In this document: positions 2,685 through 62,711 of the stretch, in pieces
How positions within the stretch are numbered: position 1 is the first letter of the stretch
Layout of the letters: every line of letters starts with the position of its first letter
NCBI GenBank assembly: GCA_022614955.1
Contig: JAKEHP010000027.1
Span: forward strand, 16,555 to 80,554
DNA from: Candidatus Methylomirabilota bacterium
Lineage (GTDB): Bacteria > Methylomirabilota > Methylomirabilia > Methylomirabilales > JACPAU01
Length of the DNA: 64,000 bases
Direction: 5' to 3'
Made by a program: the position numbers and the translations under genes
The notes under the pieces: generated by a model
The model's database searches: none
Told to the model about the DNA's origin: nothing
Seen by the model: only the letters and a program-made list of their open reading frames with translations

Positions 2685-3692
2685 TTACTGGACGGCCAGG
2701 CGCAGTGCGGTCTTCTCCTCGGGGGTGAAGGGGATGACCCCGGGGATGAGCCACTTCTCCCACATCTCGTCGGTCTTCCGCTGGAAGAACTCGATGTCTT
2801 CCTCGATGAAGTGCGCGAAGCGACCCTGCCGCTCCAGGTACTCTCGCACCGGCTTGCGCTTCCGGCCGGCCGCGATGGCCTTCGACTTGGAGTAGAAGCG
2901 GAGCTTCCCGTCCTCGACCTCGTAGAGGGGCCAGATGCCCGTCTCCACCGCCAGCTCCCCCAGCTCGTGGGAGAGCATGGGGTCGTAGTCCCAGCCCTTG
3001 GGGCAGGGGTCCAGGGAGTGGATGAACGTAGGGCCACCGATGGAGAGGCTTTTGCGCACCTTGTTCATCATGTCCACGGCGAAGGAGGCGCACACGGTGG
3101 CCACGTACCGGCAGGTGGGATGCCCGGCCGCCAGCATCGCCGCCATGTTCTTCTTCCACCGGCGGTTCATGATCCGGTACTTCTTTCCCGGGGGGGAGAA
3201 GGTGGTGTTGACCCCCCAGGGGGAGGAGCCGGAGACCTGGATGTCGGTGTTAGCGTAGGACTCGTTATCGTAGCAGAGGATCAGCAGGTTGTACCCCTCG
3301 TGCATGAGGGTGGCGGAGATGGCCGAGAGGCCCATGTCCACCCCGCCCCCGTCCCCGCAGAAGGCGATGACGTTGATGGGCTCCTGCGGGATCTTGCCCT
3401 TCCGCATGAGCACCTTCAAGGCCGCGGCGGTGCCGAGGCCGGCCGACCCCGAGGAGCCGAGCTGGGTGTGCATCCAGGGGACGACCCAGGAGGTGCTGTA
3501 GTAGGTGGTGTTCGCCACGTACATGCACCCCGTGCTTCCCAGGACGACGGTGCGGGGCCCCGCCGCCTTCACCATCAGCTTCATGACCAGGGCCGACTCG
3601 CACCCCTGGCAGGTCCGGTGGCCGGAGGTGAAGTACTCCTCCTGGGTCACCTTCTTGACGCCCTTAAAGGGCTCGAGCTGCAGTGTCTGCAT
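2685..3692 (-). CDS. 2-oxoacid:ferredoxin oxidoreductase, beta (TPP-binding) subunit
   Basis: CQGCESAL N-terminal Cys motif and TPP motif FCGDGGGVDMG...CYDNESYANT. Directly downstream of the alpha subunit. Confidence 0.9.
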   Translation of the reverse strand: MQTLQLEPFKGVKKVTQEEYFTSGHRTCQGCESALVMKLMVKAAGPRTVVLGSTGCMYVANTTYYSTSWVVPWMHTQLGSSGSAGLGTAAALKVLMRKGKIPQEPINVIAFCGDGGGVDMGLSAISATLMHEGYNLLILCYDNESYANTDIQVSGSSPWGVNTTFSPPGKKYRIMNRRWKKNMAAMLAAGHPTCRYVATVCASFAVDMMNKVRKSLSIGGPTFIHSLDPCPKGWDYDPMLSHELGELAVETGIWPLYEVEDGKLRFYSKSKAIAAGRKRKPVREYLERQGRFAHFIEEDIEFFQRKTDEMWEKWLIPGVIPFTPEEKTALRLAVQ

Positions 3693-3697
3693 GGTGG

Positions 3698-4912
3698 TTA
3701 CCCCCTGACCCCGACCCAGGTGGTCGGCTTGTCAACGCGCCCCGTCTTAGCCGTCTTGACCGTTGTCTCCACCATCTCCACCACGTCCGGAATCGTGACC
3801 TCCCGCCCGCCCAGGCCGCAGATGAAGCCCAGGATCGGAGGCCGCGTGTCGGCCCCGTAGAGGGCGGACCGGATCTCGTTGTAGAGGACGCCGCCGTCGT
3901 TCGGCGAGCCGAAGGAGTAGTCGCGATCCACCACCCCGACCGCCTTGAAGCGCGAGAGGGTCTGGGTGATCTCCTCCGTGGGGAAGGGCCGGAGCCACTT
4001 CAGCCGGACGAAGCCCACCTTCTGCCCCTGCTCCCGGAGCTTCCGGACCGTCACCTTCACCGGCAGCCCCAGCGTCCCCTGGCCGATCAGGACCACCTCC
4101 GCGTCCTCGGTCATGTACTCCTCGAGCCAGGGGTCACCGCCGCGGCCGAAGATCCGCTTGAAGTCGCGGTTGGCCTCCACGATGACGCCCCGGGCTCGCT
4201 TCATCGCCTCGCTGTTCTGCATCCGGATCTCCATCAGCCAGTCCTCATTCACCTGCGGGGCGATGGTGATGGGGTTGTCCGGGTGCAGGCGCTTGTCCCC
4301 CCGGTCATAGGGGGGGAGGAACTCGGTCACCTGCTCCTTGGTGGGGAGCCGGACCAGGTGCTGGGAGTGGGTCAGGAAGGCCCCGTCCATCCCCAGAGCG
4401 CAGGGGAGGAAGACCTTGGGGTTCTCCGCCACCCGGTAGGCCATCAGAGCGGTATCCAGCGCCTCCTGCGCGCCCTCGATCCAGGTGAGCATCCAGCCGA
4501 GGTCCCGGACCGCCAGGGCGTCGTTGTGCTCGCACCCGAAGGCCCCGGGGTCGTCGAGGGCCCGGTTTCCCACCAGGGCGACCATCGGGAGGCGCAGCCC
4601 GGCGGTGACGGCCAGCGCCTCCATGGCGTAGAACCAGCCCACGCCCGAGGAGCCGACGAACACCCGGGCGCCCACGGCTGAGGCGTGCTTCACGATCTCG
4701 AACTGGGAGTGCTCGCTCTCCGCCACGATGTACTCGGCGTCGAGATCGCCGTTGGAGATCATCTTCGCGACCATCTGCATGACGGTGTCGTAGGGCCGGA
4801 TAGGGTAGGCTGTCACCACGTCAATGTCGGCCAGCCGGCAGGCGTGGGCGATGGCCTCACACCCGCTGATGAGCTCCTCCCGCTCCCCGGCCTTCGCAGT
4901 CAGTGCGCTCAC
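3698..4912 (-). CDS. 2-oxoacid:ferredoxin oxidoreductase, alpha subunit
   Basis: GTG start at 4912 preceded by GGAGGG. Reads MSALTAKAGEREELISGCEAIAHACRLADIDVVTAYPIRPYD..., PorA/KorA-like. The longer 602-aa track ORF has a low-complexity upstream extension. Confidence 0.85.
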   Translation of the reverse strand: MSALTAKAGEREELISGCEAIAHACRLADIDVVTAYPIRPYDTVMQMVAKMISNGDLDAEYIVAESEHSQFEIVKHASAVGARVFVGSSGVGWFYAMEALAVTAGLRLPMVALVGNRALDDPGAFGCEHNDALAVRDLGWMLTWIEGAQEALDTALMAYRVAENPKVFLPCALGMDGAFLTHSQHLVRLPTKEQVTEFLPPYDRGDKRLHPDNPITIAPQVNEDWLMEIRMQNSEAMKRARGVIVEANRDFKRIFGRGGDPWLEEYMTEDAEVVLIGQGTLGLPVKVTVRKLREQGQKVGFVRLKWLRPFPTEEITQTLSRFKAVGVVDRDYSFGSPNDGGVLYNEIRSALYGADTRPPILGFICGLGGREVTIPDVVEMVETTVKTAKTGRVDKPTTWVGVRG

Positions 4913-30264: not shown

Positions 30265-31380
30265 TCAGCGGGCCAGGAAGGCCCGCAGGGTGTCGGCGGC
30301 TTTCTCGATCTCCAGCACGCCGGCCAGGTGTCCCCCGTCGCTGGCCAGCTGCGCGAGGGTGACGGTCACGCCGGCCCGCTCGAGGGCAGCCGCCAGCCTG
30401 ACCGTCTCGGTGGGGGGGAGGAAGAGGTCACTCCGGCAGGGGAGGAGGAGGCACCGGGCCCGGATCCGCCGGAACGCCTCCTCCACGGGGAAAAGGCCGG
30501 AGCCCGGCTCGTAGGCGGCGTTGGCACGGGCCAGGTACAGGTAGTGGTTGGCATCCATGAGTGCTGCCCGTGTCCGGGCCAGCGCGTCCAGCTCCGCCTC
30601 GATCAGGAAGCGGCCGGTCGGCGAGGAGTCGGGAGGCGCTGCGGGGTCCGCCGGGCGGCGACCGTAGGTCGCGTCAGCCCAGGCAGGGCAGCGGGCGATT
30701 GCGGAGACGATCTTCAGGGCCAGCACGAGCCCCTCGGTCGGCTCGGCCTTGCCGTAGTAGTCCCCGCCGTTCCAGCGGGGGTCGAGCCGGATCGCCTCGG
30801 TGGCGGCGTGTCCCGGCATCATGAGGGTCCAGGGGCCTAGGCTTGCTACGCTGGTCACCGAGAGCATCCGCGCGACCCGCTCGGGGTAGGCGATGGCCCA
30901 CTCGAGCGCCTGGAGGCCCCCCATTGACGGCCCGGCGACCGCCACGACCCGCTGGATCCCCAGGGCGTCGAGGAGGAGCCGCTGGACCTCCACGAAGTCC
31001 CGGATCGCCACCGGCGGAAAGGTCATCCCGTAGGGGGTGCCCGTCGCCGGATTCACCGTGGCCGGGCCTGTTGTCACGACGCGGGGGTCCTTCACGTTGA
31101 GGTTGCAGAGGCTGTCCACGCTCAGGACGAAGCAGTGCGTCGTGTCGAAGGGCTTCCCGGGGCCGATGACCGCGTCCCAGTAGCCGGGCAGCGCCTCTTC
31201 GGGGCTGTAGCGACCGGCGGCGTGCGAGGTCCCGGAGAAGTAGTGGCATATGAGGACGGCGTTGTCCCGGGCCGGGCTGAGCGTCCCGTAGCTCTCGTAT
31301 CCGACCGCGACCTCCGGAAGGGTGACGCCGCAGTGGAGACGAAACTCGCGCACCCGGAAGGTCTCTTTTCTCACCAGCAT
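30265..31380 (-). CDS. metX: homoserine O-acetyltransferase
   Basis: NAVLICHYFSGTSHAAG, GPSMGGLQALEW nucleophile elbow, and overall MetX/MetXA length (371 aa). Confidence 0.9.
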   Translation of the reverse strand: MLVRKETFRVREFRLHCGVTLPEVAVGYESYGTLSPARDNAVLICHYFSGTSHAAGRYSPEEALPGYWDAVIGPGKPFDTTHCFVLSVDSLCNLNVKDPRVVTTGPATVNPATGTPYGMTFPPVAIRDFVEVQRLLLDALGIQRVVAVAGPSMGGLQALEWAIAYPERVARMLSVTSVASLGPWTLMMPGHAATEAIRLDPRWNGGDYYGKAEPTEGLVLALKIVSAIARCPAWADATYGRRPADPAAPPDSSPTGRFLIEAELDALARTRAALMDANHYLYLARANAAYEPGSGLFPVEEAFRRIRARCLLLPCRSDLFLPPTETVRLAAALERAGVTVTLAQLASDGGHLAGVLEIEKAADTLRAFLAR

Positions 31381-40383: not shown

Positions 40384-41475
40384 ATGCCCGTGACGGTGTA
40401 CATCCCCACCCCATTCCGGAAGCTGACGGGGAACATCGCCCAGGTGGAGGCGGAGGCGGCCGACCTGGCCGGTCTCCTCGCCGTCCTGGAGGACCGTTTC
40501 CCCGGCCTCCGGGAACGGGTCGTGGACGAGCTGGGGGCCATCCACCGCCACGTGAACGTCTACGTCAACGACCGGGCGGTGGAGGACCTGGGGGGGGCCC
40601 GGACCCCCTTGCGAGACGGGGACGAGGTAGCCCTGATCCCGGCCATCGCCGGCGGTGCTTTGCCATTCAGCGAGGAGCAGATCCGGCGGTACAGCCGCCA
40701 CATTATTCTCCCGGAGATGGGCGGGAAGGGGCAGCGGAAGCTCTTGAACAGCAGCGTCCTCCTGGTCGGGGCGGGGGGACTGGGCTCCCCGGCCGGCCTG
40801 TACCTGGCGGCTGCGGGGGTAGGACGGATCGGGATCGTGGACTTCGACCGGGTGGACCTGAGTAACCTGCAGCGGCAGCTCCTCCACCGGACGAAGGACG
40901 TGGGGCGGCTCAAGGTGGACTCGGCGGCGGACACCATTGCCGAGATCAATCCGGACGTGAAGGTGGAGGCCCATCCGGTCCAGCTCTCGAGTGCCAACGT
41001 GAAGGAGATCCTGCAGGCCTACGACGTGGTGGTGAACGGCTGCGATAACTTCCCCACCCGCTACCTGCTGAACGACGCCTGCGTTTTCCTGAAGAAGCCT
41101 CTCGTGGACGGGAGCCTCTTCCGGTTCGAAGGGCAGGCCGCGGTCTTTCTCCCCGGTCAGGGCTGTTACCGGTGCCTCTATCCCTCCCCGCCGCCGCCAG
41201 GCCTCGTCCCCTCCTGCCAGGAGGCCGGGATCCTCGGGGTCCTGTGCGGGATCATCGGGTGCATCCAGGGAATCGAGGCGATCAAAGTCCTGCTCGGGAT
41301 CGGAGAGTCGCTGGCCGGACGCATGCTCTTCTTTGACGCGATGACCATGGAGTTCCGCCAGGTCCAGTTCCGCCGGGATAAGGCCTGCCCGGTCTGCGGC
41401 GATGCCCCGACGATCACGGACTTGCTTGACTACCACGAGTTCTGCGGGGTCCCCGCGGGGCAGAGGGTGAGCTAG
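40384..41475 (+). CDS. fusion protein: N-terminal MoaD/ThiS-like ubiquitin-fold sulfur carrier (ending ...PAIAGG) joined directly to a MoeB/ThiF-type E1 adenylyltransferase
   Basis: Residues 1-92 are paralogous to the two free MoaD-like genes in this window and end in AIAGG. The E1 domain follows after a two-residue (Ala-Leu) linker (ALPFSEEQIRRYSRHIILPEMG, VGAGGLGS, CYRC...CPVC zinc site). No stop or frameshift at the junction. Confidence 0.85.
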   Translation: MPVTVYIPTPFRKLTGNIAQVEAEAADLAGLLAVLEDRFPGLRERVVDELGAIHRHVNVYVNDRAVEDLGGARTPLRDGDEVALIPAIAGGALPFSEEQIRRYSRHIILPEMGGKGQRKLLNSSVLLVGAGGLGSPAGLYLAAAGVGRIGIVDFDRVDLSNLQRQLLHRTKDVGRLKVDSAADTIAEINPDVKVEAHPVQLSSANVKEILQAYDVVVNGCDNFPTRYLLNDACVFLKKPLVDGSLFRFEGQAAVFLPGQGCYRCLYPSPPPPGLVPSCQEAGILGVLCGIIGCIQGIEAIKVLLGIGESLAGRMLFFDAMTMEFRQVQFRRDKACPVCGDAPTITDLLDYHEFCGVPAGQRVS

Positions 41476-46106: not shown

Positions 46107-46391
46107 ATGGCGACCATTGAGGTCCACGTCCCTCAGATTTTGCGGAAGCACACGGCCGGCGCCAAGACCCTGAGGGCGTCCGGGCGGACCGTCCGGGAGG
46201 CGCTGGAGGACCTGGAGCGGCAGCATCCGGGCTTCCGGGAGCGGGTGCTGGAGGACGGCGGCCGTCTGCACCGCTTCGTGAACATCTACGTGAACGACGA
46301 GGACGTCCGCTTCATCCAGGCCCTGGACACGCCGCTGAAGGATGGGGACGTTCTCTCCATCCTGCCGGCCGTGGCTGGCGGATGGGCCTGA
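46107..46391 (+). CDS. MoaD/ThiS/CysO-like ubiquitin-fold sulfur carrier (ends ...AVAGG-WA)
   Basis: 94 aa, paralogous to the N-domain of the 40384 fusion and to 62370..62711. Directly upstream of a CysM-like gene. Confidence 0.8.
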   Translation: MATIEVHVPQILRKHTAGAKTLRASGRTVREALEDLERQHPGFRERVLEDGGRLHRFVNIYVNDEDVRFIQALDTPLKDGDVLSILPAVAGGWA

Positions 46392-46437
46392 GCAGCGCCG
46401 GCCGGCCGGGCGGAAGCCCCTCCGGCGCGGGGGAGTA

Positions 46438-47373
46438 ATGTCCGAGCGGGACATCGTCAGTGCCATCGGGAACACGCCTCTGGTGGAGCTCCCGCGGATG
46501 AGCCCGAAGCCATCCGTCCGGATTTTCGCCAAGCTGGAGGGGCACAATCCCACCGGGAGCCTGAAGGACCGGATCGCCAAGTACATGATCGAGGAAGCAG
46601 AGCGGACCGAGGGTCTGACACCGGCGAAGACGCTCCTCGAGCCGACCAGCGGGAACACCGGGATCGCCCTGGCGATGATCGGGCGGCTGAAGGGCTACAA
46701 GGTCCGGGTGGTCACGCCCGAGAATATCACCGAGGAGCGGAAGCAGCTCCTCGCCCTCTACGGGGCCGAGATGATCTTCTCGGAGGCAAAGCGGGGGACG
46801 AACGGCTCGATCGAAATGGCCAAAGCGCTGGCCGCCGCGGACGCGACGTACCATCTCCTCTACCAGTATGGCAATCAGGCGAACCCGAAGGCGCACTATG
46901 AGACCACCGGTGCGGAGATCCTCCGCGACATGCCGGAGGTGGACGTGCTCGTAGCGGGCCTGGGCACCGGCGGGACCCTGATGGGGGTCGGCCGGCGACT
47001 CCGGGAGGCAAACCCGCGGGTAAAGATCATCGCCACGGAGCCGCACCCCGGAGACACGGTCCAGGGACTTCGGAGCCTGGACGAGGGGTTCATCCCGCCG
47101 ATCCTCGACCAGAGCCTGCTCGACGGAAAGATCATAGTGGACTCCCGGACAGCCTTCACCATGACCAAGGAGCTGACCCTAAAAGAGGCGATCTTTGCGG
47201 GGGTCTCCTCAGGGGCCGTGCTCTATGGCGCGATCCGGACGGCCCTCAAGATGGACCGGGGCACCATCGTGTGCGTGTTCTGCGATGGGGGGTGGAAGTA
47301 CATGAGCCTCGGCATCTGGCAGAAGGAGGTCGCGGAGTACGAGGAGGGGGTCCAGGCTCATGTGTGGTGGTAG
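46438..47373 (+). CDS. cysM: cysteine synthase B-like (CysM-type; likely carrier-thiocarboxylate dependent)
   Basis: IGNTPLV, TGSLKDR, TSGNTGIALA, GLGTGGTLMG. Gene order carrier-then-CysM as in CysO/CysM systems. Confidence 0.85.
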   Translation: MSERDIVSAIGNTPLVELPRMSPKPSVRIFAKLEGHNPTGSLKDRIAKYMIEEAERTEGLTPAKTLLEPTSGNTGIALAMIGRLKGYKVRVVTPENITEERKQLLALYGAEMIFSEAKRGTNGSIEMAKALAAADATYHLLYQYGNQANPKAHYETTGAEILRDMPEVDVLVAGLGTGGTLMGVGRRLREANPRVKIIATEPHPGDTVQGLRSLDEGFIPPILDQSLLDGKIIVDSRTAFTMTKELTLKEAIFAGVSSGAVLYGAIRTALKMDRGTIVCVFCDGGWKYMSLGIWQKEVAEYEEGVQAHVWW

Positions 47374-53247: not shown

Positions 53248-53318
53248 GGAGCCCTATGGTCGCCAGGCCATCGAGCCGGGGGGGCTCCCCGGGCCGGGGG
53301 GTAGCCCACAGAGAACGC

Positions 53319-54377
53319 CTAGCGCTGGAGGAGGGCCCCGAGCGACGGCCGGAGGATTCCCCGCTCCCAGGCCGCCAGGTTCTGTGGGTCGGATTTCCCC
53401 CACACGAAGAAGAGCGCCATCGCCCCGTAGAAGGGCAGGTGCCCCACCAGCTCCTCTGCACCGAAGATGCCCAGGGTCAGGTTGAAGGGGAACCAGGCGA
53501 TGACGATGATGTCCCGGAGGAAGGTCCCGCTCAGGATGCAGAGGCCGACCAGGAGTTCCACCGCACCGATCATCAGCACGAACTGGGCATCCGTGAGGGG
53601 GATGCCGAGTGCGGGGAGGAAATTCAGGGGGTACTCCGCCAGGAAGTCCACGGCCATCGGGACGTTGAGAAGCTTCTCGGTGAAGGCGACGACGATCAGG
53701 CTCAGGCCGATCCCCACGCGCAGCATCGGGACGGCCCGCACGACGAGGGCCGGGCTCGGCTCCCACTTCGGGAAGAGCGCCCGGTCCACGGCAAGGGGTC
53801 CCCGCCCTGCACAGACGAAAAAGGCGCTGAAGCCCAGGATGTGGATCGCCTCCAGCATCGGTTCGACCCCAATCACGAAGAGACCGGCCCCCCACATCAG
53901 GGCCAGGAGGAGGGCGCAGAGGCGGGTGCCCGAGCCATACAAGAGGCCGAGCATCACCCCGATCTGCCCCAGGGTGAACAGATGGGCCCACATCCCCCCC
54001 AGGCCGTTGTTGGGGCTGAAGAGGGTGTGGTCCAGACCGTTTACCATCAGGGGGACGCCGAGATGAACGGCAAGGACGAGAGGCATAAAGGCGTACAGCG
54101 CATCTCGTGTCCCGGGCGTGCCGCCGAGGTCGTGGGGGCCGGGGATGACCGAGCGCTGCCCCCGCCATCGCCAAAGGAGCAGCCCCACCGCCCAGAGCGC
54201 GATCGGTCCCCCGATCGCCAGCCACGTCCAGGGGTCCGCGAGCGCCTCGGCGCGAAGCGGGTAGGCCTCGGCGTCGAGGAACCACTTTTCGTGCGCTTCG
54301 GCAGGGTGCCCCAGGGCAAACACAATTCCCGGCCCCCCGAGGAGCATTGCGCAAAGGACCTTCCGATCAGCTCTCAT
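53319..54377 (-). CDS. polytopic membrane protein of unknown function (DoxX-like C-terminal half)
   Basis: 352 aa, about 9 TM, signal-like N-terminus. Coding-like hydrophobic periodicity. Confidence 0.6.
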   Translation of the reverse strand: MRADRKVLCAMLLGGPGIVFALGHPAEAHEKWFLDAEAYPLRAEALADPWTWLAIGGPIALWAVGLLLWRWRGQRSVIPGPHDLGGTPGTRDALYAFMPLVLAVHLGVPLMVNGLDHTLFSPNNGLGGMWAHLFTLGQIGVMLGLLYGSGTRLCALLLALMWGAGLFVIGVEPMLEAIHILGFSAFFVCAGRGPLAVDRALFPKWEPSPALVVRAVPMLRVGIGLSLIVVAFTEKLLNVPMAVDFLAEYPLNFLPALGIPLTDAQFVLMIGAVELLVGLCILSGTFLRDIIVIAWFPFNLTLGIFGAEELVGHLPFYGAMALFFVWGKSDPQNLAAWERGILRPSLGALLQR

Positions 54378-54610
54378 GACGGTACCCCCGTGGCGAACGT
54401 GTTGGGCCCCAGCCGGCGCGGCTCTCTCTGGGCGGCACCGGTGTCGCTGGCCAACCGTGTACCGGGCTTTGGTCCAGCGGGGACATCTCAGCCGCTCCGC
54501 CGGGCCACCATGCTACCACTGCCGGTGCATGGTGGGAACCGAGGCCGCCCGGGACCCCTCGCCGGGCGGGCCGCCGCACAGGCTGGAGGGGTGGGAAAGC
54601 GGGGTCTCCG

Positions 54611-55546
54611 TTGACGCGGCTCCTGGGTCTGACCGTGGCAATCACCGGCAGCCGGAGAGCGTCGGAGCTCGCCCATCTCATCGCGAATTTCGGCGGCGTC
54701 CCGTATGTGGCCCCGACGGTGGGAATTGATGTGCAGGAGGAGCTGGGCCCCCAGGTGGACGGGTTGGTGCAGCGGATCGTCGGCGGCGAATGTGATTATG
54801 CGGTCTTCATGACGGGCCCGGGCGTGTATCTGCTGATGGCGCAGGCGGAGAAACTCGCGGTGCAACGCGAGGTGGTGGACAGGCTGAACTGTCTCTCCGT
54901 CGTTGCCAGGAGCCAGAAGCCGCAGAAGGTGTTGGAGAAGTACGGCGTGCGGGTGAGCCTGGTGCCATCGGACAATACGGCGGAAGGGATCGCCGCGGAG
55001 ATGGGGAAGCTCGATCTTCAGGGGAAGCGCGTGGCCGTCCTCTGGCATGGGGCCCCTGCGGCGATCCTCCGCCAGGAGCTGGAGAGAAGGGGAGCGGACG
55101 TCTTCGAGGCCCAGGCGTACCACTATTCGCCGGAGCTCGAGAGGAGCGGCGCAGAGGTGCTTGGAGCCCTGGGCTTTCAGTACGTAGCGCCCGAACACCG
55201 GAAGGTCCTCCAACTTATCCACGATGTCCTGGAGAGGAAAATTCACATCGTGACCTTCACCAGCCCGCCCTCCGCCAGGAATCTCTTTCAAATGGCAGAG
55301 GAGCACGGCCTGCACGCGGAGTTGTGCAGACAGATGGACGCGAACGTGCTGGTCGTCGCGGTTGGCCCCCCGACGAGGCGGGCCATCGAGGAACACGGTG
55401 TCAGCGTGGATGTCATGCCAGCGGTCTACAAGCTCGGGCCGATGGTGCGGGTGATCGCGGACTATTTCGCTCTCCCGCTCCCCTCGCAGAAGAAACGGTT
55501 CCTCGCGGGGACTGCCCCCGGGAAAGAGGGTGACGGTCGTGGCTAG
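54611..55546 (+). CDS. hemD: uroporphyrinogen-III synthase
   Basis: HemD-like two-lobe pattern (GLTVAITGSR...; TFTSPPSARN). TTG start as in the track. Sits with cobA and cbiX. Confidence 0.75.
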   Translation: MTRLLGLTVAITGSRRASELAHLIANFGGVPYVAPTVGIDVQEELGPQVDGLVQRIVGGECDYAVFMTGPGVYLLMAQAEKLAVQREVVDRLNCLSVVARSQKPQKVLEKYGVRVSLVPSDNTAEGIAAEMGKLDLQGKRVAVLWHGAPAAILRQELERRGADVFEAQAYHYSPELERSGAEVLGALGFQYVAPEHRKVLQLIHDVLERKIHIVTFTSPPSARNLFQMAEEHGLHAELCRQMDANVLVVAVGPPTRRAIEEHGVSVDVMPAVYKLGPMVRVIADYFALPLPSQKKRFLAGTAPGKEGDGRG

Positions 55547-55943
55547 CCCAAAGACAACCGATATGGATGTCCTCCTGCAACTCTATCAGATCTATGACCG
55601 GAACCGCGAAGCGCTTCTCTGGTTCCTGCACGACCTCGCGGCAAAGGACTACTCCGAGTACAAGGCCAAGTACGCAGGCACTTCAAAAGAACGCGTCTCC
55701 TTCACCTCGGTGTGCGGCTTCTTCGAGCTGTCCGGTGTCCTGGTCAACAGGAAACTGCTCAGCGCCGACCTGTTCTTCGATGTCTTCAACCCCACGCCCT
55801 ACTGGGAGCGTGCGAAGCCCATCGTGGAGGGCATGCGCAAGGCGAGGCCCCACATCTACGAGAATTTCGAACGCCTCGATGCAGAGCGAAGGCAGTGGGC
55901 AGAAAAGCGTCCGCCGAAGATCAGGCCGAAGACGCGGAAGTAG
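55530..55943 (+). CDS. hypothetical protein (no family recognised)
   Basis: 137 aa, lower GC than its neighbours, balanced composition. Alternative start 55563. Confidence 0.5.
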
Positions 55944-56023
55944 CTCGTCCCTATGCCGGCAGATCATCACACGAACTCCGGCCGCGCCGCGCGGTGGCGC
56001 GGCCCGGGGCGCAGGGCTCGCTG

Positions 56024-56809
56024 ATGCAAACGAAGGGGAAGGTCTACCTGATCGGGGCGGGGCCGGGGGACCCGGGCCTGCTCACGCTGAAGGGGGCCCG
56101 GTGCCTGGGCGAGGCGGATGTCGTTCTGTACGACTACCTGGCCAACCCTGCCCTCCTGGGGCACACCCGGCCCGAGGCGGAGGTCGTGTACGTGGGCAAG
56201 CAGGGAGACGGAGAGCACACTCCCCAGGAGTGGATCACCCGCCTCCTCGTCCAGCGCGCGCGGGCCGGGCAGGTCGTGGCCCGCCTGAAAGGGGGCGACC
56301 CCTTCGTTTTCGGGCGGGGGGGAGAGGAGGCGGAGGCCCTGGCGAAGGCGGGCATCCCGTTCGAGGTCGTCCCGGGGGTGACGGCGGCGGTGGCGGTTCC
56401 AGCCTACGCCGGCATCCCCCTCACCCATCGGGACTGCGCGTCCAGCGTGGCGATCGTCACGGGGACGGCGGCGGCCGATCGGGAGGCACCCGGGATCGCC
56501 TGGGACAAACTCGCCACGGCTGTTGGCACGCTGGTCGTCCTGATGCCGGTCCGACGGCTTCCCGAGATCGCCCGCCGTCTGCTCGCGCACGGCCAGCCAG
56601 CCAGCACCCCGGCGGCCCTGATTCGATGGGGTACCAAACCCGAGCAGCGGACGCTGGTAGGCACCCTCGGAGATATCGCGCAGCGGGCGGCGGCGGCCCG
56701 CATTCAGCCGCCGGCCACACTGGTCGTCGGCGAAGTCGTCCGGCTGCGCGAGATGCTGAGGTGGTTCGAGGAGGGAGCGGACTATGAAGACGGTCCTGCT
56801 TCTGGTTGA
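56024..56809 (+). CDS. cobA: uroporphyrin-III C-methyltransferase
   Basis: [41 protein letters not shown] motifs. Confidence 0.9.
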
Positions 56810-60316: not shown

Positions 60317-60556
60317 ATGGCGAAGCGGCGCGTGCACCTGACGTTCCCGGGGAAGCTGGCCGACGAGCCCATCCTCTGGCAGCTCAGCCAGACGTTCGAC
60401 CTGATCTTCAACATCCGCCAGGCGGATTACACCGAGGGCCTCGGCTGGATGATGACCGAGCTGGAGGGGACCGCGGCCAACCTGGAGGCGGGGCTCCGGT
60501 GGCTGGAGGGGCAGGGGGTGCGTGTGGCTCCGATCGAGCAGGACGTGCTCCACTGA
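60317..60556 (+). CDS. stand-alone NIL-domain protein
   Basis: 79 aa. VHLTFPGKLADEPILWQLSQTFDLIFNIRQA resembles the MetN C-terminal NIL fold. Confidence 0.7.
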   Translation: MAKRRVHLTFPGKLADEPILWQLSQTFDLIFNIRQADYTEGLGWMMTELEGTAANLEAGLRWLEGQGVRVAPIEQDVLH

Positions 60557-60569
60557 CCCGCTTTTCCAC

Positions 60570-60598
60570 TTGACAAGGCGGGGGCCCTCTGCTCTACT
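60570..60598 (+). promoter_or_regulatory. candidate promoter of the riboswitch-led transcript
   Basis: TTGACA-17 nt-TCTACT, about 40 nt upstream of the aptamer P1. Confidence 0.35.
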
Positions 60599-60637
60599 AC
60601 GCGAAATTCGCTCTCTGACAATCGACCGATTGCCCGC

Positions 60638-60753
60638 TTCTCATCTAGAGTGGCTGAGGGACTGGCCCTGTGAAGCCACGGCAACGGGCGGCCGCTGTGT
60701 GAGCCGCCGACGTGCCAACTCCTGCAGTCGGGGGACCGGCTGAGAGATGAGAA
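60638..60753 (+). promoter_or_regulatory. SAM-I (S-box) riboswitch aptamer
   Basis: UUCUCAUC-UAGAG-UGGCUGAGGGACUGGCCCUGUGAAGCCACGGCAAC...GUGCCAACUCCUGCAG...GAGAUGAGAA matches the S-box consensus (AUCnAGAG, GAGGGAcUGGCCC, UGAAnCC, GCAAC, GUGCnAAnUCC). P1 closes as UUCUCAUC/GAUGAGAA. Confidence 0.9.
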
Positions 60754-60781
60754 GGGGAGACGCGCCTGCTGCCAGTGTGCT

Positions 60782-60820
60782 GAGCCCCTTCTCAAACGAT
60801 GAGAAGGGGCTTCGATTTTT
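60782..60820 (+). terminator. intrinsic terminator (riboswitch expression platform)
   Basis: 11-bp stem AGCCCCUUCUC / GAGAAGGGGCU, 7-nt loop, then UCGAUUUUU. The P1 3' strand plus downstream GAGAAGGGG can alternatively pair with the terminator 5' arm (antiterminator). Confidence 0.8.
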
Positions 60821-60831
60821 CCGGAGGGAGA

Positions 60832-61050
60832 ATGCCGACGCGGCGGGTGACGCTCACTTTCCCCAAGACGCTGGTGACGGAGCCGGTAATCTGGCGGGTG
60901 TCGAAGGAGTTCGGCCTGGTCCCGAACATCCGGAAAGCCAGGGTGACGGTGGAGGCGGGGGAGGTGGTCCTGGAGTTAACCGGGACCGCCGACGCCCTGG
61001 ATCGAGGGATGGCCTACCTCAGGACGCTGGGCATCCAGGTCACGACGTGA
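60832..61050 (+). CDS. stand-alone NIL-domain protein (second copy)
   Basis: 72 aa. VTLTFPKTLVTEPVIWRVSKEFGLVPNIRKA, paralogous to 60317..60556. GGAGGGAG RBS. Confidence 0.7.
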   Translation: MPTRRVTLTFPKTLVTEPVIWRVSKEFGLVPNIRKARVTVEAGEVVLELTGTADALDRGMAYLRTLGIQVTT

Positions 61051-61087
61051 GAGGGGGCCGCGCCGCGCGGAGCCCCAGGAGGGACGG

Positions 61088-62338
61088 ATGGCGCACGTGA
61101 AGGGCCTGAAGTGCCGGGAGTGTCACCGGCCCTACCCCGCGAAGCCGCTCCACGTCTGCGAGTTCTGCTTCGGGCCGCTCGAGGTGGACTACGACTACGC
61201 GGCGCTGCGCCGCGTGGCGACCCGCCGGGCGATCGAGGCCGGTCCCCCCAGCATCTGGCGCTACCAGGCCCTCCTCCCGGTGGAGGGGGAGGCCGCCGTC
61301 GGGCACGCCTGCGGGATGACCCCCCTCCTCCCGGCCAAAAACCTCGGGGCGGCACTGGGGGTGCGCGAGTGCTACCTGAAGAACGACGCCGTCTGCCATC
61401 CCACCCTCTCCTTCAAGGACCGGGTGGTGGCGGTCGCCGTGACCAAGGCGCTGGAGTTCGGCTTCCCGGTGGTGGCCTGCGCCTCGACGGGCAACCTGGC
61501 TAACTCGGTGGCCGCGCACGCCGCCGAGGCCTCCCTCCGGAGCGTGATCTTCGTCCCCGCCGACCTGGAGCAGGGGAAGATCGTGGGGACGCTGGTCTAC
61601 CGCCCGACCCTGGTGGCGGTGGACGGCAACTACGACGAGGTGAACCGCCTCTGCAGCGAGGTGGCGGACAAGTACGGCTGGGCCTTCGTGAACATCAATA
61701 TCCGCCCCTACTATGCAGAGGGCTCCAAGACCTTCGGCTTCGAGATCGCTGAGCAGCTCGGCTGGCGGGCGCCCCGGCACATCGTGGTCCCGGCGGCGGG
61801 GGGCTCCCTGGTGACCAAGATCTGGAAGGGGCTCAAGGAACTCCAGGCCCTGGACCTGATCCCGGAGGTTTCCACCCGGATGTACGTGGCGCAGGCGTCG
61901 GGGTGCGGGCCCATCGTCAACGCCATCAAGGCCGACTCGGAGACCATCCGGCCGGTGAAGCCGAAGACCATCGCCAAGTCGCTCGCTATCGGCAACCCGG
62001 CGGACGGCTACTACGCCTTCAAAGCGGTCAAGGAGAGCGGGGGGGGCGCCGAGCACGCCACCGACGAGGAAATCCTCGAGGGGATCCAGCTCCTCGCTGC
62101 CACTGAGGGGATCTTTACCGAGACGGCAGGGGGTGTGACCGTGGCGGCGGCCCAGAAGCTCATTGCGCAAGGGGTGATCCCGCGGGACGAGAGCCTGGTG
62201 ATCTCCATTACTGGTAACGGCCTGAAGACGCAAGAGGCGCTCACCGGGGTGCTGCCCGCCGGGTTGACCATCAAACCGACACTTAAGGCCTTCGACGAGG
62301 CGCTGGCCGCCCACGAAGCGGAAACAAGTGGTGCCTGA
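61088..62338 (+). CDS. threonine-synthase-family PLP enzyme with N-terminal zinc-ribbon (candidate MetM-type homocysteine synthase)
   Basis: CRECHRPY...CEFC ribbon, PLP lysine motif TLSFKDR, ASTGNLANS. Context: SAM riboswitch upstream, MoaD-like carrier downstream. Confidence 0.8.
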   Translation: MAHVKGLKCRECHRPYPAKPLHVCEFCFGPLEVDYDYAALRRVATRRAIEAGPPSIWRYQALLPVEGEAAVGHACGMTPLLPAKNLGAALGVRECYLKNDAVCHPTLSFKDRVVAVAVTKALEFGFPVVACASTGNLANSVAAHAAEASLRSVIFVPADLEQGKIVGTLVYRPTLVAVDGNYDEVNRLCSEVADKYGWAFVNINIRPYYAEGSKTFGFEIAEQLGWRAPRHIVVPAAGGSLVTKIWKGLKELQALDLIPEVSTRMYVAQASGCGPIVNAIKADSETIRPVKPKTIAKSLAIGNPADGYYAFKAVKESGGGAEHATDEEILEGIQLLAATEGIFTETAGGVTVAAAQKLIAQGVIPRDESLVISITGNGLKTQEALTGVLPAGLTIKPTLKAFDEALAAHEAETSGA

Positions 62339-62369
62339 GCGACGGCGAGCCGGGGAGGGAAAGACAGGG

Positions 62370-62711
62370 ATGAGCGTGCTCGTGCGGATCCCGACCCCCC
62401 TGCGGAATCTTACGCAAGGGCAGGCGGAGGTGAAGGTCGAGGGGACCTCCATCGGGGAGCTGATCGAGCGGCTGGACGCCAAGTACGCCGGGCTGAAGGA
62501 CCGCCTCTGCGAGGGCAACGGCGCAATCCGCCGGTTCATCAATATCTACGTGAACGAGGAGGACATCCGATTCCTCCAGGGCCCGGCGACGCCCCTGAAG
62601 GCGGGGGATGCGGTCTCCATTGTCCCCGCTATTGCGGGCGGGGGACCAGAGACCGGCACCACCTTCGCGAGGCCGTCCCGCAGAAGGCCCGTGAAGGAAG
62701 CCGTCCATTAA
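62370..62711 (+). CDS. MoaD/ThiS-like sulfur carrier with 23-residue extension after the Gly-Gly (candidate MetO-type carrier)
   Basis: MSVLVRIPTPLRNLT...FINIYVNEEDIRF...VSIVPAIAGG, then GPETGTTFARPSRRRPVKEAVH. Confidence 0.75.
   Translation: MSVLVRIPTPLRNLTQGQAEVKVEGTSIGELIERLDAKYAGLKDRLCEGNGAIRRFINIYVNEEDIRFLQGPATPLKAGDAVSIVPAIAGGGPETGTTFARPSRRRPVKEAVH

Follow-up and report, generated by a model that had tools for sequence, protein, structure and literature searches.

We describe a locus at positions 60,570 to 62,711 of a 64,000-nucleotide stretch of DNA from a Candidatus Methylomirabilota bacterium (assembly GCA_022614955.1, contig JAKEHP010000027.1, positions 16,555 to 80,554 of the forward strand; hereafter the window, to which all positions refer), and propose that it is, with high probability, a transcription-attenuation OFF switch placed before a homocysteine operon of the MetM/MetO type. 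The switch is an S-adenosylmethionine (SAM) riboswitch of the SAM-I class. A first-pass annotation, made from the letters alone, had named the genes behind it as a NIL-domain protein, a threonine synthase (ThrC) homologue with a zinc ribbon and a ThiS/MoaD-like carrier, and matches to PF09383, TIGR00260/PALP and PF02597 identify them as just that. It had also suggested that the set makes homocysteine from O-phosphohomoserine and a carrier thiocarboxylate under repression by SAM, a role to which enzyme phylogeny, carrier synteny, the recurrent riboswitch and the partner genes all point. The proposal is built on the RNA elements, the identities of the genes, membership of the enzyme in a clade, conserved gene order and the presence of partner genes in the genome.

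The leader RNA has the classical S-box design. RF00162 is the single Rfam family with a match in the window; the match spans model positions 1-108 of 108, scores 92.8 bits (E 6e-21) above a gathering score of 44.4 bits, and falls on exactly the coordinates, 60638-60753, that had been read by eye for the aptamer. Of the terminator claimed behind it, the hairpin and T-run are real, but the stem has 13 bp, not 11; the hairpin is G+C-rich and folds with -23.3 kcal/mol. The alternative pairing predicted between the 5' arm of the terminator and the 3' strand of P1 is also there: an antiterminator helix joins 60748-60757 (UGAGAAGGGG) to 60785-60794 (CCCCUUCUCA), the latter being the terminator 5' arm, and with a small enclosed hairpin reaches -26.8 kcal/mol in ViennaRNA. 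The minimum-energy fold of the entire leader contains this helix too. Since the P1 3' strand (60746-60753) has six bases (60748-60753) in common with the antiterminator, P1, together with the terminator, and the antiterminator are mutually exclusive. When SAM is low, the nascent leader would form the antiterminator and RNA polymerase would read into NIL2-metM-metO; when SAM is high, the aptamer would close P1, the antiterminator 5' strand would be removed, the terminator would form and transcription would stop. No methionine-codon leader peptide was found in the leader, whose short frames start within P1 or the terminator and are not Met-rich. A candidate promoter of the sigma-70 type lies upstream of the aptamer. 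Its -35 is a perfect match, and it was missed by a promoter scan because its -10 has no A at position 2; in four genomes of the same genus CTTGACAA and the TACT core of the -10 are invariant and part of the spacer varies. The first controlled gene, NIL2, begins with the ATG at 60832 behind a ribosome-binding site, GGAGGGAG, at 60823-60830. The start at 60799 that had been assigned to it before falls within the terminator and has to be given up.

The association of this RNA with metM recurs well beyond the window. In the 2.8-Mb assembly this aptamer is the one SAM-I hit. We compared 31 genomes of the same order, namely the window's own and 30 relatives: SAM-I is found in 27 of them, most having exactly one, and the layout NIL1, riboswitch, NIL2, MetM is repeated in 24 of the 29 riboswitch loci fetched from the relatives. 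On a wider scale, a listing of homologues of the MetM candidate gave at least 560 relatives, from which 80 loci with 60-80% identity, spread over many phyla, were retained. A SAM-I riboswitch stands directly upstream of MetM, or of a NIL gene preceding MetM, at 14 of these 80, and at one further locus (L048:1649-1761) it lies 2.2 kb upstream of MetM. Seven groups, Nonomuraea included, thus combine SAM-I with metM: Methylomirabilota, Brocadia-type Planctomycetota, deltaproteobacteria-type bins, Latescibacterota, Dehalococcoidia, Sumerlaeota and Actinomycetota. A hairpin with a U-run follows the aptamer in every one of the 15 riboswitch loci examined outside Actinomycetota. The Nonomuraea aptamer ends 13 nt ahead of the start codon, which suggests translational control in that case. 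Some loci show other arrangements. The L048 riboswitch heads a longer operon that opens with a small ThiS-like frame, judged by eye, and has an E1-type adenylyltransferase (E1) gene at 3115-3918. Two genomes of another family of the order (L197 and L215) belong to those with two to four SAM-I riboswitches, an extra one standing before a gene that by eye resembles sulfite reductase, and in L223 a SAM-I lies ahead of a gene resembling, again by eye, an ABC-transporter permease.

What kind of enzyme does the riboswitch control? The MetM candidate aligns lengthwise with solved ThrC structures, bears an N-terminal CxxC...CxxC zinc ribbon (C9, C12, C24, C27) and has a putative pyridoxal phosphate (PLP) lysine, K110, within SFKDR, which from the general behaviour of ThrC-family enzymes we take to be the Schiff-base lysine. 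Among the matches listed, its nearest homologues (70-80% identity) come from metagenome bins of Methylomirabilota, of the NC10 and Rokubacteria types, and its relatives are labelled 'threonine synthase' in databases. Orthologues from Streptomyces, Kitasatospora and Nonomuraea are 50-53% identical to it and keep the zinc ribbon. On the chromosome of Nonomuraea gerenzanensis (52% identity) the order is SAM-I aptamer, enzyme with the same zinc ribbon, and a carrier of 91 residues with GG at its end, and a NIL gene is lacking; used as a query, the Nonomuraea enzyme retrieves orthologues that are 76-78% identical to it in dozens of Streptomyces and Kitasatospora species. We built a maximum-likelihood tree (48 sequences) from the MetM candidate, its homologues, actinomycete orthologues and ThrC paralogues, the actinomycete part being eight orthologues, three of them from Streptomyces species, that stand in for S. 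albulus MetM (A0A059WBP2). The window protein, 28 homologues from other phyla and the eight actinomycete orthologues form a single clade with a support of 100 in the SH-like approximate likelihood ratio test (SH-aLRT) and a stem of 1.53 substitutions per site, and the genome's canonical ThrC and further ThrC paralogues fall outside it. Judged by this phylogeny, a check that the first-pass annotation had itself proposed, the enzyme belongs with the Streptomyces-type MetM orthologues, apart from canonical ThrC.

The canonical thrC is a separate gene on another contig (C414; TIGR00260, 320 bits), and a MetM homologue and a canonical thrC were both found in all five of the other genomes checked. 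A search of the PDB for a MetM structure returned only ThrC structures, at about 40% identity. Identity as a cysteate synthase was considered and ruled out, the score against TIGR03844 being 56 bits with a cut-off of 325. The genome holds a third ThrC-like protein of 619 residues on contig C293 (L003:515-2374), with a zinc ribbon and a PALP domain; with 321.6 bits it exceeds the cut-off of 303 of the model NF006050 'threonine synthase', its residues 430-616 are a fused C-terminal regulatory domain of the LeuA type, and a Methylomirabilis genome (L179) encodes a 618-residue orthologue. In nine Nitrospirota loci (L058, L061, L062, L067, L072, L073, L075, L076 and L080) MetM, MetO, NIL and a second ThrC-type gene are consecutive on one strand. 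This second gene is 34-37% identical to MetM, its L058 copy groups with canonical ThrC, and both users of O-phosphohomoserine are thus clustered there.

The carrier accompanies the enzyme with great regularity. At 72 of the 80 loci a CysO-type carrier with a Gly-Gly motif follows MetM on its strand at a distance of no more than 3.5 kb, mostly directly after it. In the window MetO starts with the ATG at 62370, which matches the starts of its homologues and lies 32 nt 3' of the MetM gene, and it is 48-73% identical to the MetM-adjacent carriers of other loci. Across loci a carrier may stop at GG or run on for 1 to about 40 residues beyond it, and short tails after Gly-Gly are common in the family; actinomycete carriers mostly stop at GG, with GGC as a frequent ending in Streptomyces and Kitasatospora and a longer tail as an occasional one. 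MetO orthologues of the same genus terminate in GG or GGRR. The 22-residue tail of the window MetO is not conserved and would therefore have to come off before the carrier can work. The tail (62640-62711) could be the product of a recent loss of a stop codon. Candidates for the two maturation steps are encoded in the genome: a Prok-JAB protease gene, of the JAB/Mec type and the likely remover of the tail, lies on contig C321, and the ThiS-ThiF protein of the window (40384-41475) probably activates MetO in the manner of MoeZ. On the strand of MetM and no more than 4 kb from it, a JAB gene is present at 28 of the 80 loci, including 10 of the 13 in which MetO is fused to NIL, and an E1 gene at 37; the E1 proteins of MetM clusters are without a rhodanese domain. 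At one locus (L027:5253-6335) MetO is itself fused to a ThiF-type E1 in a protein of 360 aa, with the Gly-Gly internal, as it is in the ThiS-ThiF protein of the window (363 aa).

From these genes we infer a scheme that takes in the enzyme chemistry, the service of E1 and protease to MetO and a role for NIL, beside the ligand response described above. MetO would first lose the 22 residues after its Gly-Gly, a JAB/Mec-type protease being the likely agent, and its adenylation and sulfuration by an E1 would follow, with the ThiS-ThiF protein of the same co-directional block as the most likely candidate. MetM would exchange the phosphate of O-phosphohomoserine, made by ThrB, for the sulfur of the C-terminal thiocarboxylate of MetO, yielding homocysteine, which MetH would methylate to methionine. 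The genome has thrB as the supplier of O-phosphohomoserine and two MetH-type homocysteine-binding (methyltransferase) domains; MetE was not found in it. The first-pass annotation had counted a metX at 30265-31380 as a possible second route to homocysteine. This gene is on the minus strand, its best model is NF005262 'E22 family MetX-like putative esterase' (435.8 bits, cut-off 450), and it fails all the true MetX models, with 268-282 bits where the cut-offs are 331-500, so that the assignment cannot stand. No bona fide MetX was found in the genome. One Cys/Met-family PLP enzyme on contig C597, for which no curated equivalog scores above its cut-off, could still provide a second homocysteine route.

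What does NIL contribute to the system? That it had been seen as an added component appears to be right: it is in the cluster at 53 of the 80 loci, in four upstream of MetM, in 36 as a separate gene downstream of MetO and in 13 fused to the carrier. The upstream position occurs only in the four NC10-type loci. In the 13 fusions NIL comes directly behind the carrier Gly-Gly, the 12 complete proteins having 171-190 residues and one running off its contig end. Where the gap between MetO and NIL is about 1 kb, a ThiF-type E1 of 270-290 residues lies between them in 5/5 loci checked, four from Omnitrophota- or Nitrospirota-type bins and one from Candidatus Geothermocultor. One Latescibacterota locus has MetM, PALP, JAB, MetO and NIL in that order, and at two loci a small sulfite-reductase-like iron-sulfur protein precedes the MetO-NIL fusion. 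In two Poribacteria genomes MetM has no adjacent carrier and the single NIL gene adjoins an unlinked MetO, which indicates that NIL goes with the carrier and not with the enzyme. NIL is not obligatory for the route, since the domain is absent genome-wide from one Brocadia genome, one Nitrospinales genome and one other uncultured bacterium, all of which have MetM and MetO. In the Streptomyces genome checked, NIL occurs only in an open frame of 371 residues, about as long as a MetN should be. Placed in a tree, 56 NIL sequences split into a 'GE' and a 'GW/GL' subtype, a division whose support (94) is moderate. NIL2, the Omnitrophota and Nitrospirota sequences and the Planctomycetia fusions belong to the former, NIL1, the Rokubacteria and Dehalococcoidia sequences and the deltaproteobacterial fusions to the latter, and NIL1 groups with the Rokubacteria NIL that is located downstream of MetO. 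As fusions are found in both subtypes, they arose more than once. NIL1 and NIL2 are the sole two NIL domains of the genome.

The AlphaFold2 model of NIL2 has a predicted local distance difference test score (pLDDT) of 93.2; profile and model give a ferredoxin-like beta-alpha-beta-beta-alpha-beta fold, and the best PDB matches of the model are the C2 domains of MetN, led by 3TUZ, a selenomethionine-soaked MetNI structure (template modelling (TM) score 0.93, root-mean-square deviation 1.0 A). Searched against the PDB, the family profile finds MetN C2 domains only. A near-invariant Asn (N32 of NIL2) aligns with N295 of MetN, and in the N295A mutant of MetN binding of L-methionine falls to undetectable (PMC6233128). 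Cysteine occurs in 2 of the 56 NIL sequences and none is conserved, on which ground a role of NIL in carrying persulfide is rejected. In the model of a MetO-NIL fusion both domains are confident, the Gly-Gly linker between them has a pLDDT below 50 and the predicted TM score (pTM) is 0.53; a fixed docking of NIL on MetO is unsupported by these values, and the low-confidence linker of the model would fit an exposed cleavage site.

We consider an accessory function in the carrier step the most probable role of NIL. We lean, tentatively, towards an ACT-like sensor of methionine or homocysteine that modulates the maturation or charging of MetO. It might act on the JAB-dependent exposure of Gly-Gly or on charging by E1; in the 13 fused forms, ligand-bound NIL might control the release of active MetO, and in Methylomirabilales the two subtypes could be split, one expressed with the sulfate-reduction genes and the other under the riboswitch. 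The broader idea, that NIL is a true third component of the MetM/MetO system outside Actinomycetota, a free-standing MetN-C2-like sensor of methionine or homocysteine acting on the carrier, is more doubtful. Were NIL such a sensor, protein-level feedback would be laid on top of the RNA-level control by SAM. NIL could also be no ligand sensor at all and serve as a passive partner of the carrier step, for instance by helping MetO, E1 or the protease to dock or to stay soluble, or as a 'pro-domain' that leaves Gly-Gly blocked until it is cut off. The independent fusions of at least two NIL subtypes directly behind Gly-Gly at 13 loci would suit such a role, as would the company that NIL keeps with MetO rather than MetM where the two are unlinked, the two well-folded domains around a low-confidence linker and the lack of a conserved cysteine, by which NIL is not itself a sulfur carrier. 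Fold and profile, however, lead solely to the C2 domain of MetN, which binds methionine, an almost invariant Asn is found where MetN has N295, and stand-alone NIL genes are far more numerous than fusions; we rate a passive role as rather unlikely.

Several observations weigh against the homocysteine operon as we read it. The MetM candidate passes the NCBIfam thrC model TIGR00260 with 272.8 bits at a cut-off of 167.1, so by sequence it may also be active as a threonine synthase. It has only about 51% identity to the proteins of the characterised genus, Streptomyces, to which the biochemistry of the clade is confined, and a cyanobacterial homologue 51.6% identical to MetM is reported to have threonine synthase and deaminase activity in vitro (PMC12172450). 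On the side of the carrier, the window copy of MetO could be inactive if its non-conserved 22-residue tail stays, and the JAB gene lies on a different contig, in an assembly whose contamination is estimated at 8%. Could the enzyme then use O-phosphohomoserine with free sulfide, while carrier and NIL serve another end, for example the modification of proteins or the sulfur of cofactors? PMC13759103 lists the carrier, Mec and MoeZ of Streptomyces as pathway steps that have experimental evidence, the linkage of MetM and carrier is near-universal across phyla, and E1 and JAB genes are embedded in the MetM clusters at the frequencies given above. With a complete sulfate-to-sulfide gene set directly upstream, E1 proteins that lack a rhodanese domain and a MetO with an unprocessed tail there is a case for free sulfide, which we nevertheless consider improbable. 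Least credible is a second genuine threonine synthase, with a riboswitch that merely tunes the O-phosphohomoserine branch point: the TIGR00260 score, the names of relatives in databases and the cyanobacterial activities speak for it, but the canonical thrC of the genome scores higher, the protein sits in the long-stemmed clade with the Streptomyces-type MetM orthologues, a Gly-Gly carrier is linked at 72 of the 80 loci, Nitrospirota loci hold MetM, MetO, NIL and a canonical ThrC together, and switching off threonine synthase at high SAM opposes the known logic of the branch point, SAM being an activator of threonine synthase in plants.

The proposed MetM/MetO operon stands at the end of a co-directional block of sulfur genes that spans about 38.9 to 62.7 kb (Table 1). 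Its first part comprises, in order, an Rrf2 regulator, a PALP enzyme, the ThiS-ThiF protein (E1), two DsrE-like proteins, TusA, a CysO-like carrier and a PALP enzyme; its second part an ABC transporter, sulfite reductase, rhodanese, HemD, TauE, PAPS/APS reductase, ATP sulfurylase, CbiX and NIL1. A complete sulfate-to-sulfide gene set is found immediately upstream of the operon, and the ThiS-ThiF gene lies 21 kb upstream of it on the same strand. NIL1, the last gene of the sulfate-assimilation block (sat-cbiX-NIL1), is just upstream of the candidate promoter and, lying upstream of the riboswitch, is outside its control. The CysO-like gene followed by a PALP gene is at 46107-47373, and all three CysO-type carriers of the genome sit within the window. 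Two long frames on the plus strand of the sulfate-assimilation block, 53256-54614 and 55567-56787, have no Pfam match at E 1e-4.

Table 1. Positions of the operon, its leader RNA and related genes in the window
Feature	Position	Strand	Description
ThiS-ThiF fusion (E1 adenylyltransferase)	40384..41475	+	363 aa; PF00899 4.7e-85, PF02597 5.4e-15; no rhodanese domain
NIL1	60317..60556	+	79 aa, stand-alone NIL domain, GW subtype; PF09383 4.5e-16
Candidate sigma-70-type promoter	60570..60598	+	Putative; -35 TTGACA 60570-60575, 17-nt spacer, -10 TCTACT 60593-60598
SAM-I (S-box) aptamer	60638-60753	+	Full length, P1-P4; RF00162
Antiterminator	60748..60794	+	60748-60757 with 60785-60794; ViennaRNA fold
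Intrinsic terminator	60782-60820	+	13-bp stem 60782-60812, T-run 60816-60820; terminator scan
NIL2	60832..61050	+	72 aa, stand-alone NIL domain, GE subtype; PF09383 5.4e-16; first riboswitch-controlled gene
MetM-type homocysteine synthase candidate	61088..62338	+	416 aa, ThrC-fold PLP enzyme; PALP 1.9e-64, TIGR00260 272.8 bits
MetO-type sulfur carrier (CysO/MoaD fold)	62370..62711	+	Gly-Gly at residues 90-91, 22-residue tail; PF02597 2e-16

What are the implications of such an operon outside Streptomyces? The MetM/MetO route, described only in 2024 and in that genus, is widespread: its matches, at least 560, span Methylomirabilota, Nitrospirota, Planctomycetota, Omnitrophota, Desulfobacterota-type bacteria, Chloroflexota and other phyla. 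Because the MetM operon is the genome's only SAM-I target and no bona fide MetX was found there, it is probably the main methionine route in this lineage. Nearly all relatives of MetM carry the annotation threonine synthase, by which a false methionine auxotrophy may be called or a real pathway hidden; that MetM is often misannotated in this way has been pointed out (preprint 10.1101/2024.10.14.618325). The recurrence of NIL, often fused to the carrier, is a concrete clue to a component or regulator of protein-thiocarboxylate sulfur transfer that has so far gone unrecognised.

How does the operon compare with known systems? The closest is that of Streptomyces albulus, in which MetO is the carrier, Mec a hydrolase, MoeZ a ligase and MetM the thiocarboxylate-dependent homocysteine synthase, as Hasebe et al. 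2024 (Appl Environ Microbiol 90:e0124724) is summarised in the GapMind 2026 article (PMC13759103; preprint 10.1101/2024.10.14.618325). This is the Streptomyces work to which the first-pass annotation had correctly referred, and it is cited in PMC12172450 as well, with a SAM riboswitch upstream of S. albulus metM; since that riboswitch has already been reported there, SAM control of metM is not new. The operon thus belongs to a pathway that is known, though only from recent work, and its type of control is known as well. It shares with the S. albulus type a ThrC-fold enzyme with an N-terminal zinc ribbon, in a clade common with orthologues from the genus Streptomyces, an adjacent CysO-type Gly-Gly carrier, an upstream SAM riboswitch, E1 and JAB/Mec genes in the genome and a separate canonical thrC. 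It differs from it in an enzyme of about 51% identity, in a carrier with a 22-residue tail where Streptomyces-type carriers end in GG or GGC, and in an E1 that is a ThiS-ThiF fusion without a rhodanese domain. It differs from the actinomycete locus of Nonomuraea, which has no NIL and may be controlled in translation, by its terminator and by the two NIL genes that flank the riboswitch, the operon itself starting with NIL. We found no paper that links NIL to the MetM/MetO pathway, and the recurrent NIL partner, here as two paralogues around a riboswitch, is a variant that we have not found described.

In the CysO/CysM/MoeZ/Mec+ system of Mycobacterium tuberculosis a PLP enzyme likewise replaces the phosphate of an O-phospho amino acid by the thiocarboxylate sulfur of a CysO-type carrier, with O-phosphoserine and the CysM fold there and O-phosphohomoserine and the ThrC fold here. 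The carrier of Wolinella succinogenes reportedly starts out with extra C-terminal residues, which a JAMM-type protease cuts off, and the pathway there is said to use O-acetylhomoserine and a MetY-type sulfhydrylase instead of O-phosphohomoserine and a ThrC-fold enzyme. This HcyS/HcyD/HcyF/MetY system is a protein-thiocarboxylate methionine pathway (Krishnamoorthy and Begley 2011, in the citation given by PMC5764234), and has in common with the MetM/MetO route that a carrier thiocarboxylate supplies the sulfur of homocysteine. In methanogens and Desulfovibrio, DUF39 (MA1821) and a NIL/ferredoxin protein (MA1822) act in homocysteine synthesis from aspartate semialdehyde (PMC5764234). There, too, a NIL domain stands beside a non-canonical incorporation of sulfur into homocysteine; in the present genome NIL has no ferredoxin domain, and DUF39 as its partner is ruled out, PF01837 having no match where controls matched. 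The nearest structural relative of NIL is the C2 domain of MetN (3DHX, 3TUZ). The NIL proteins described here stand free or fused to a carrier, without an ABC ATPase, and at about 20% identity to that domain they have the same fold and keep the equivalent of N295.

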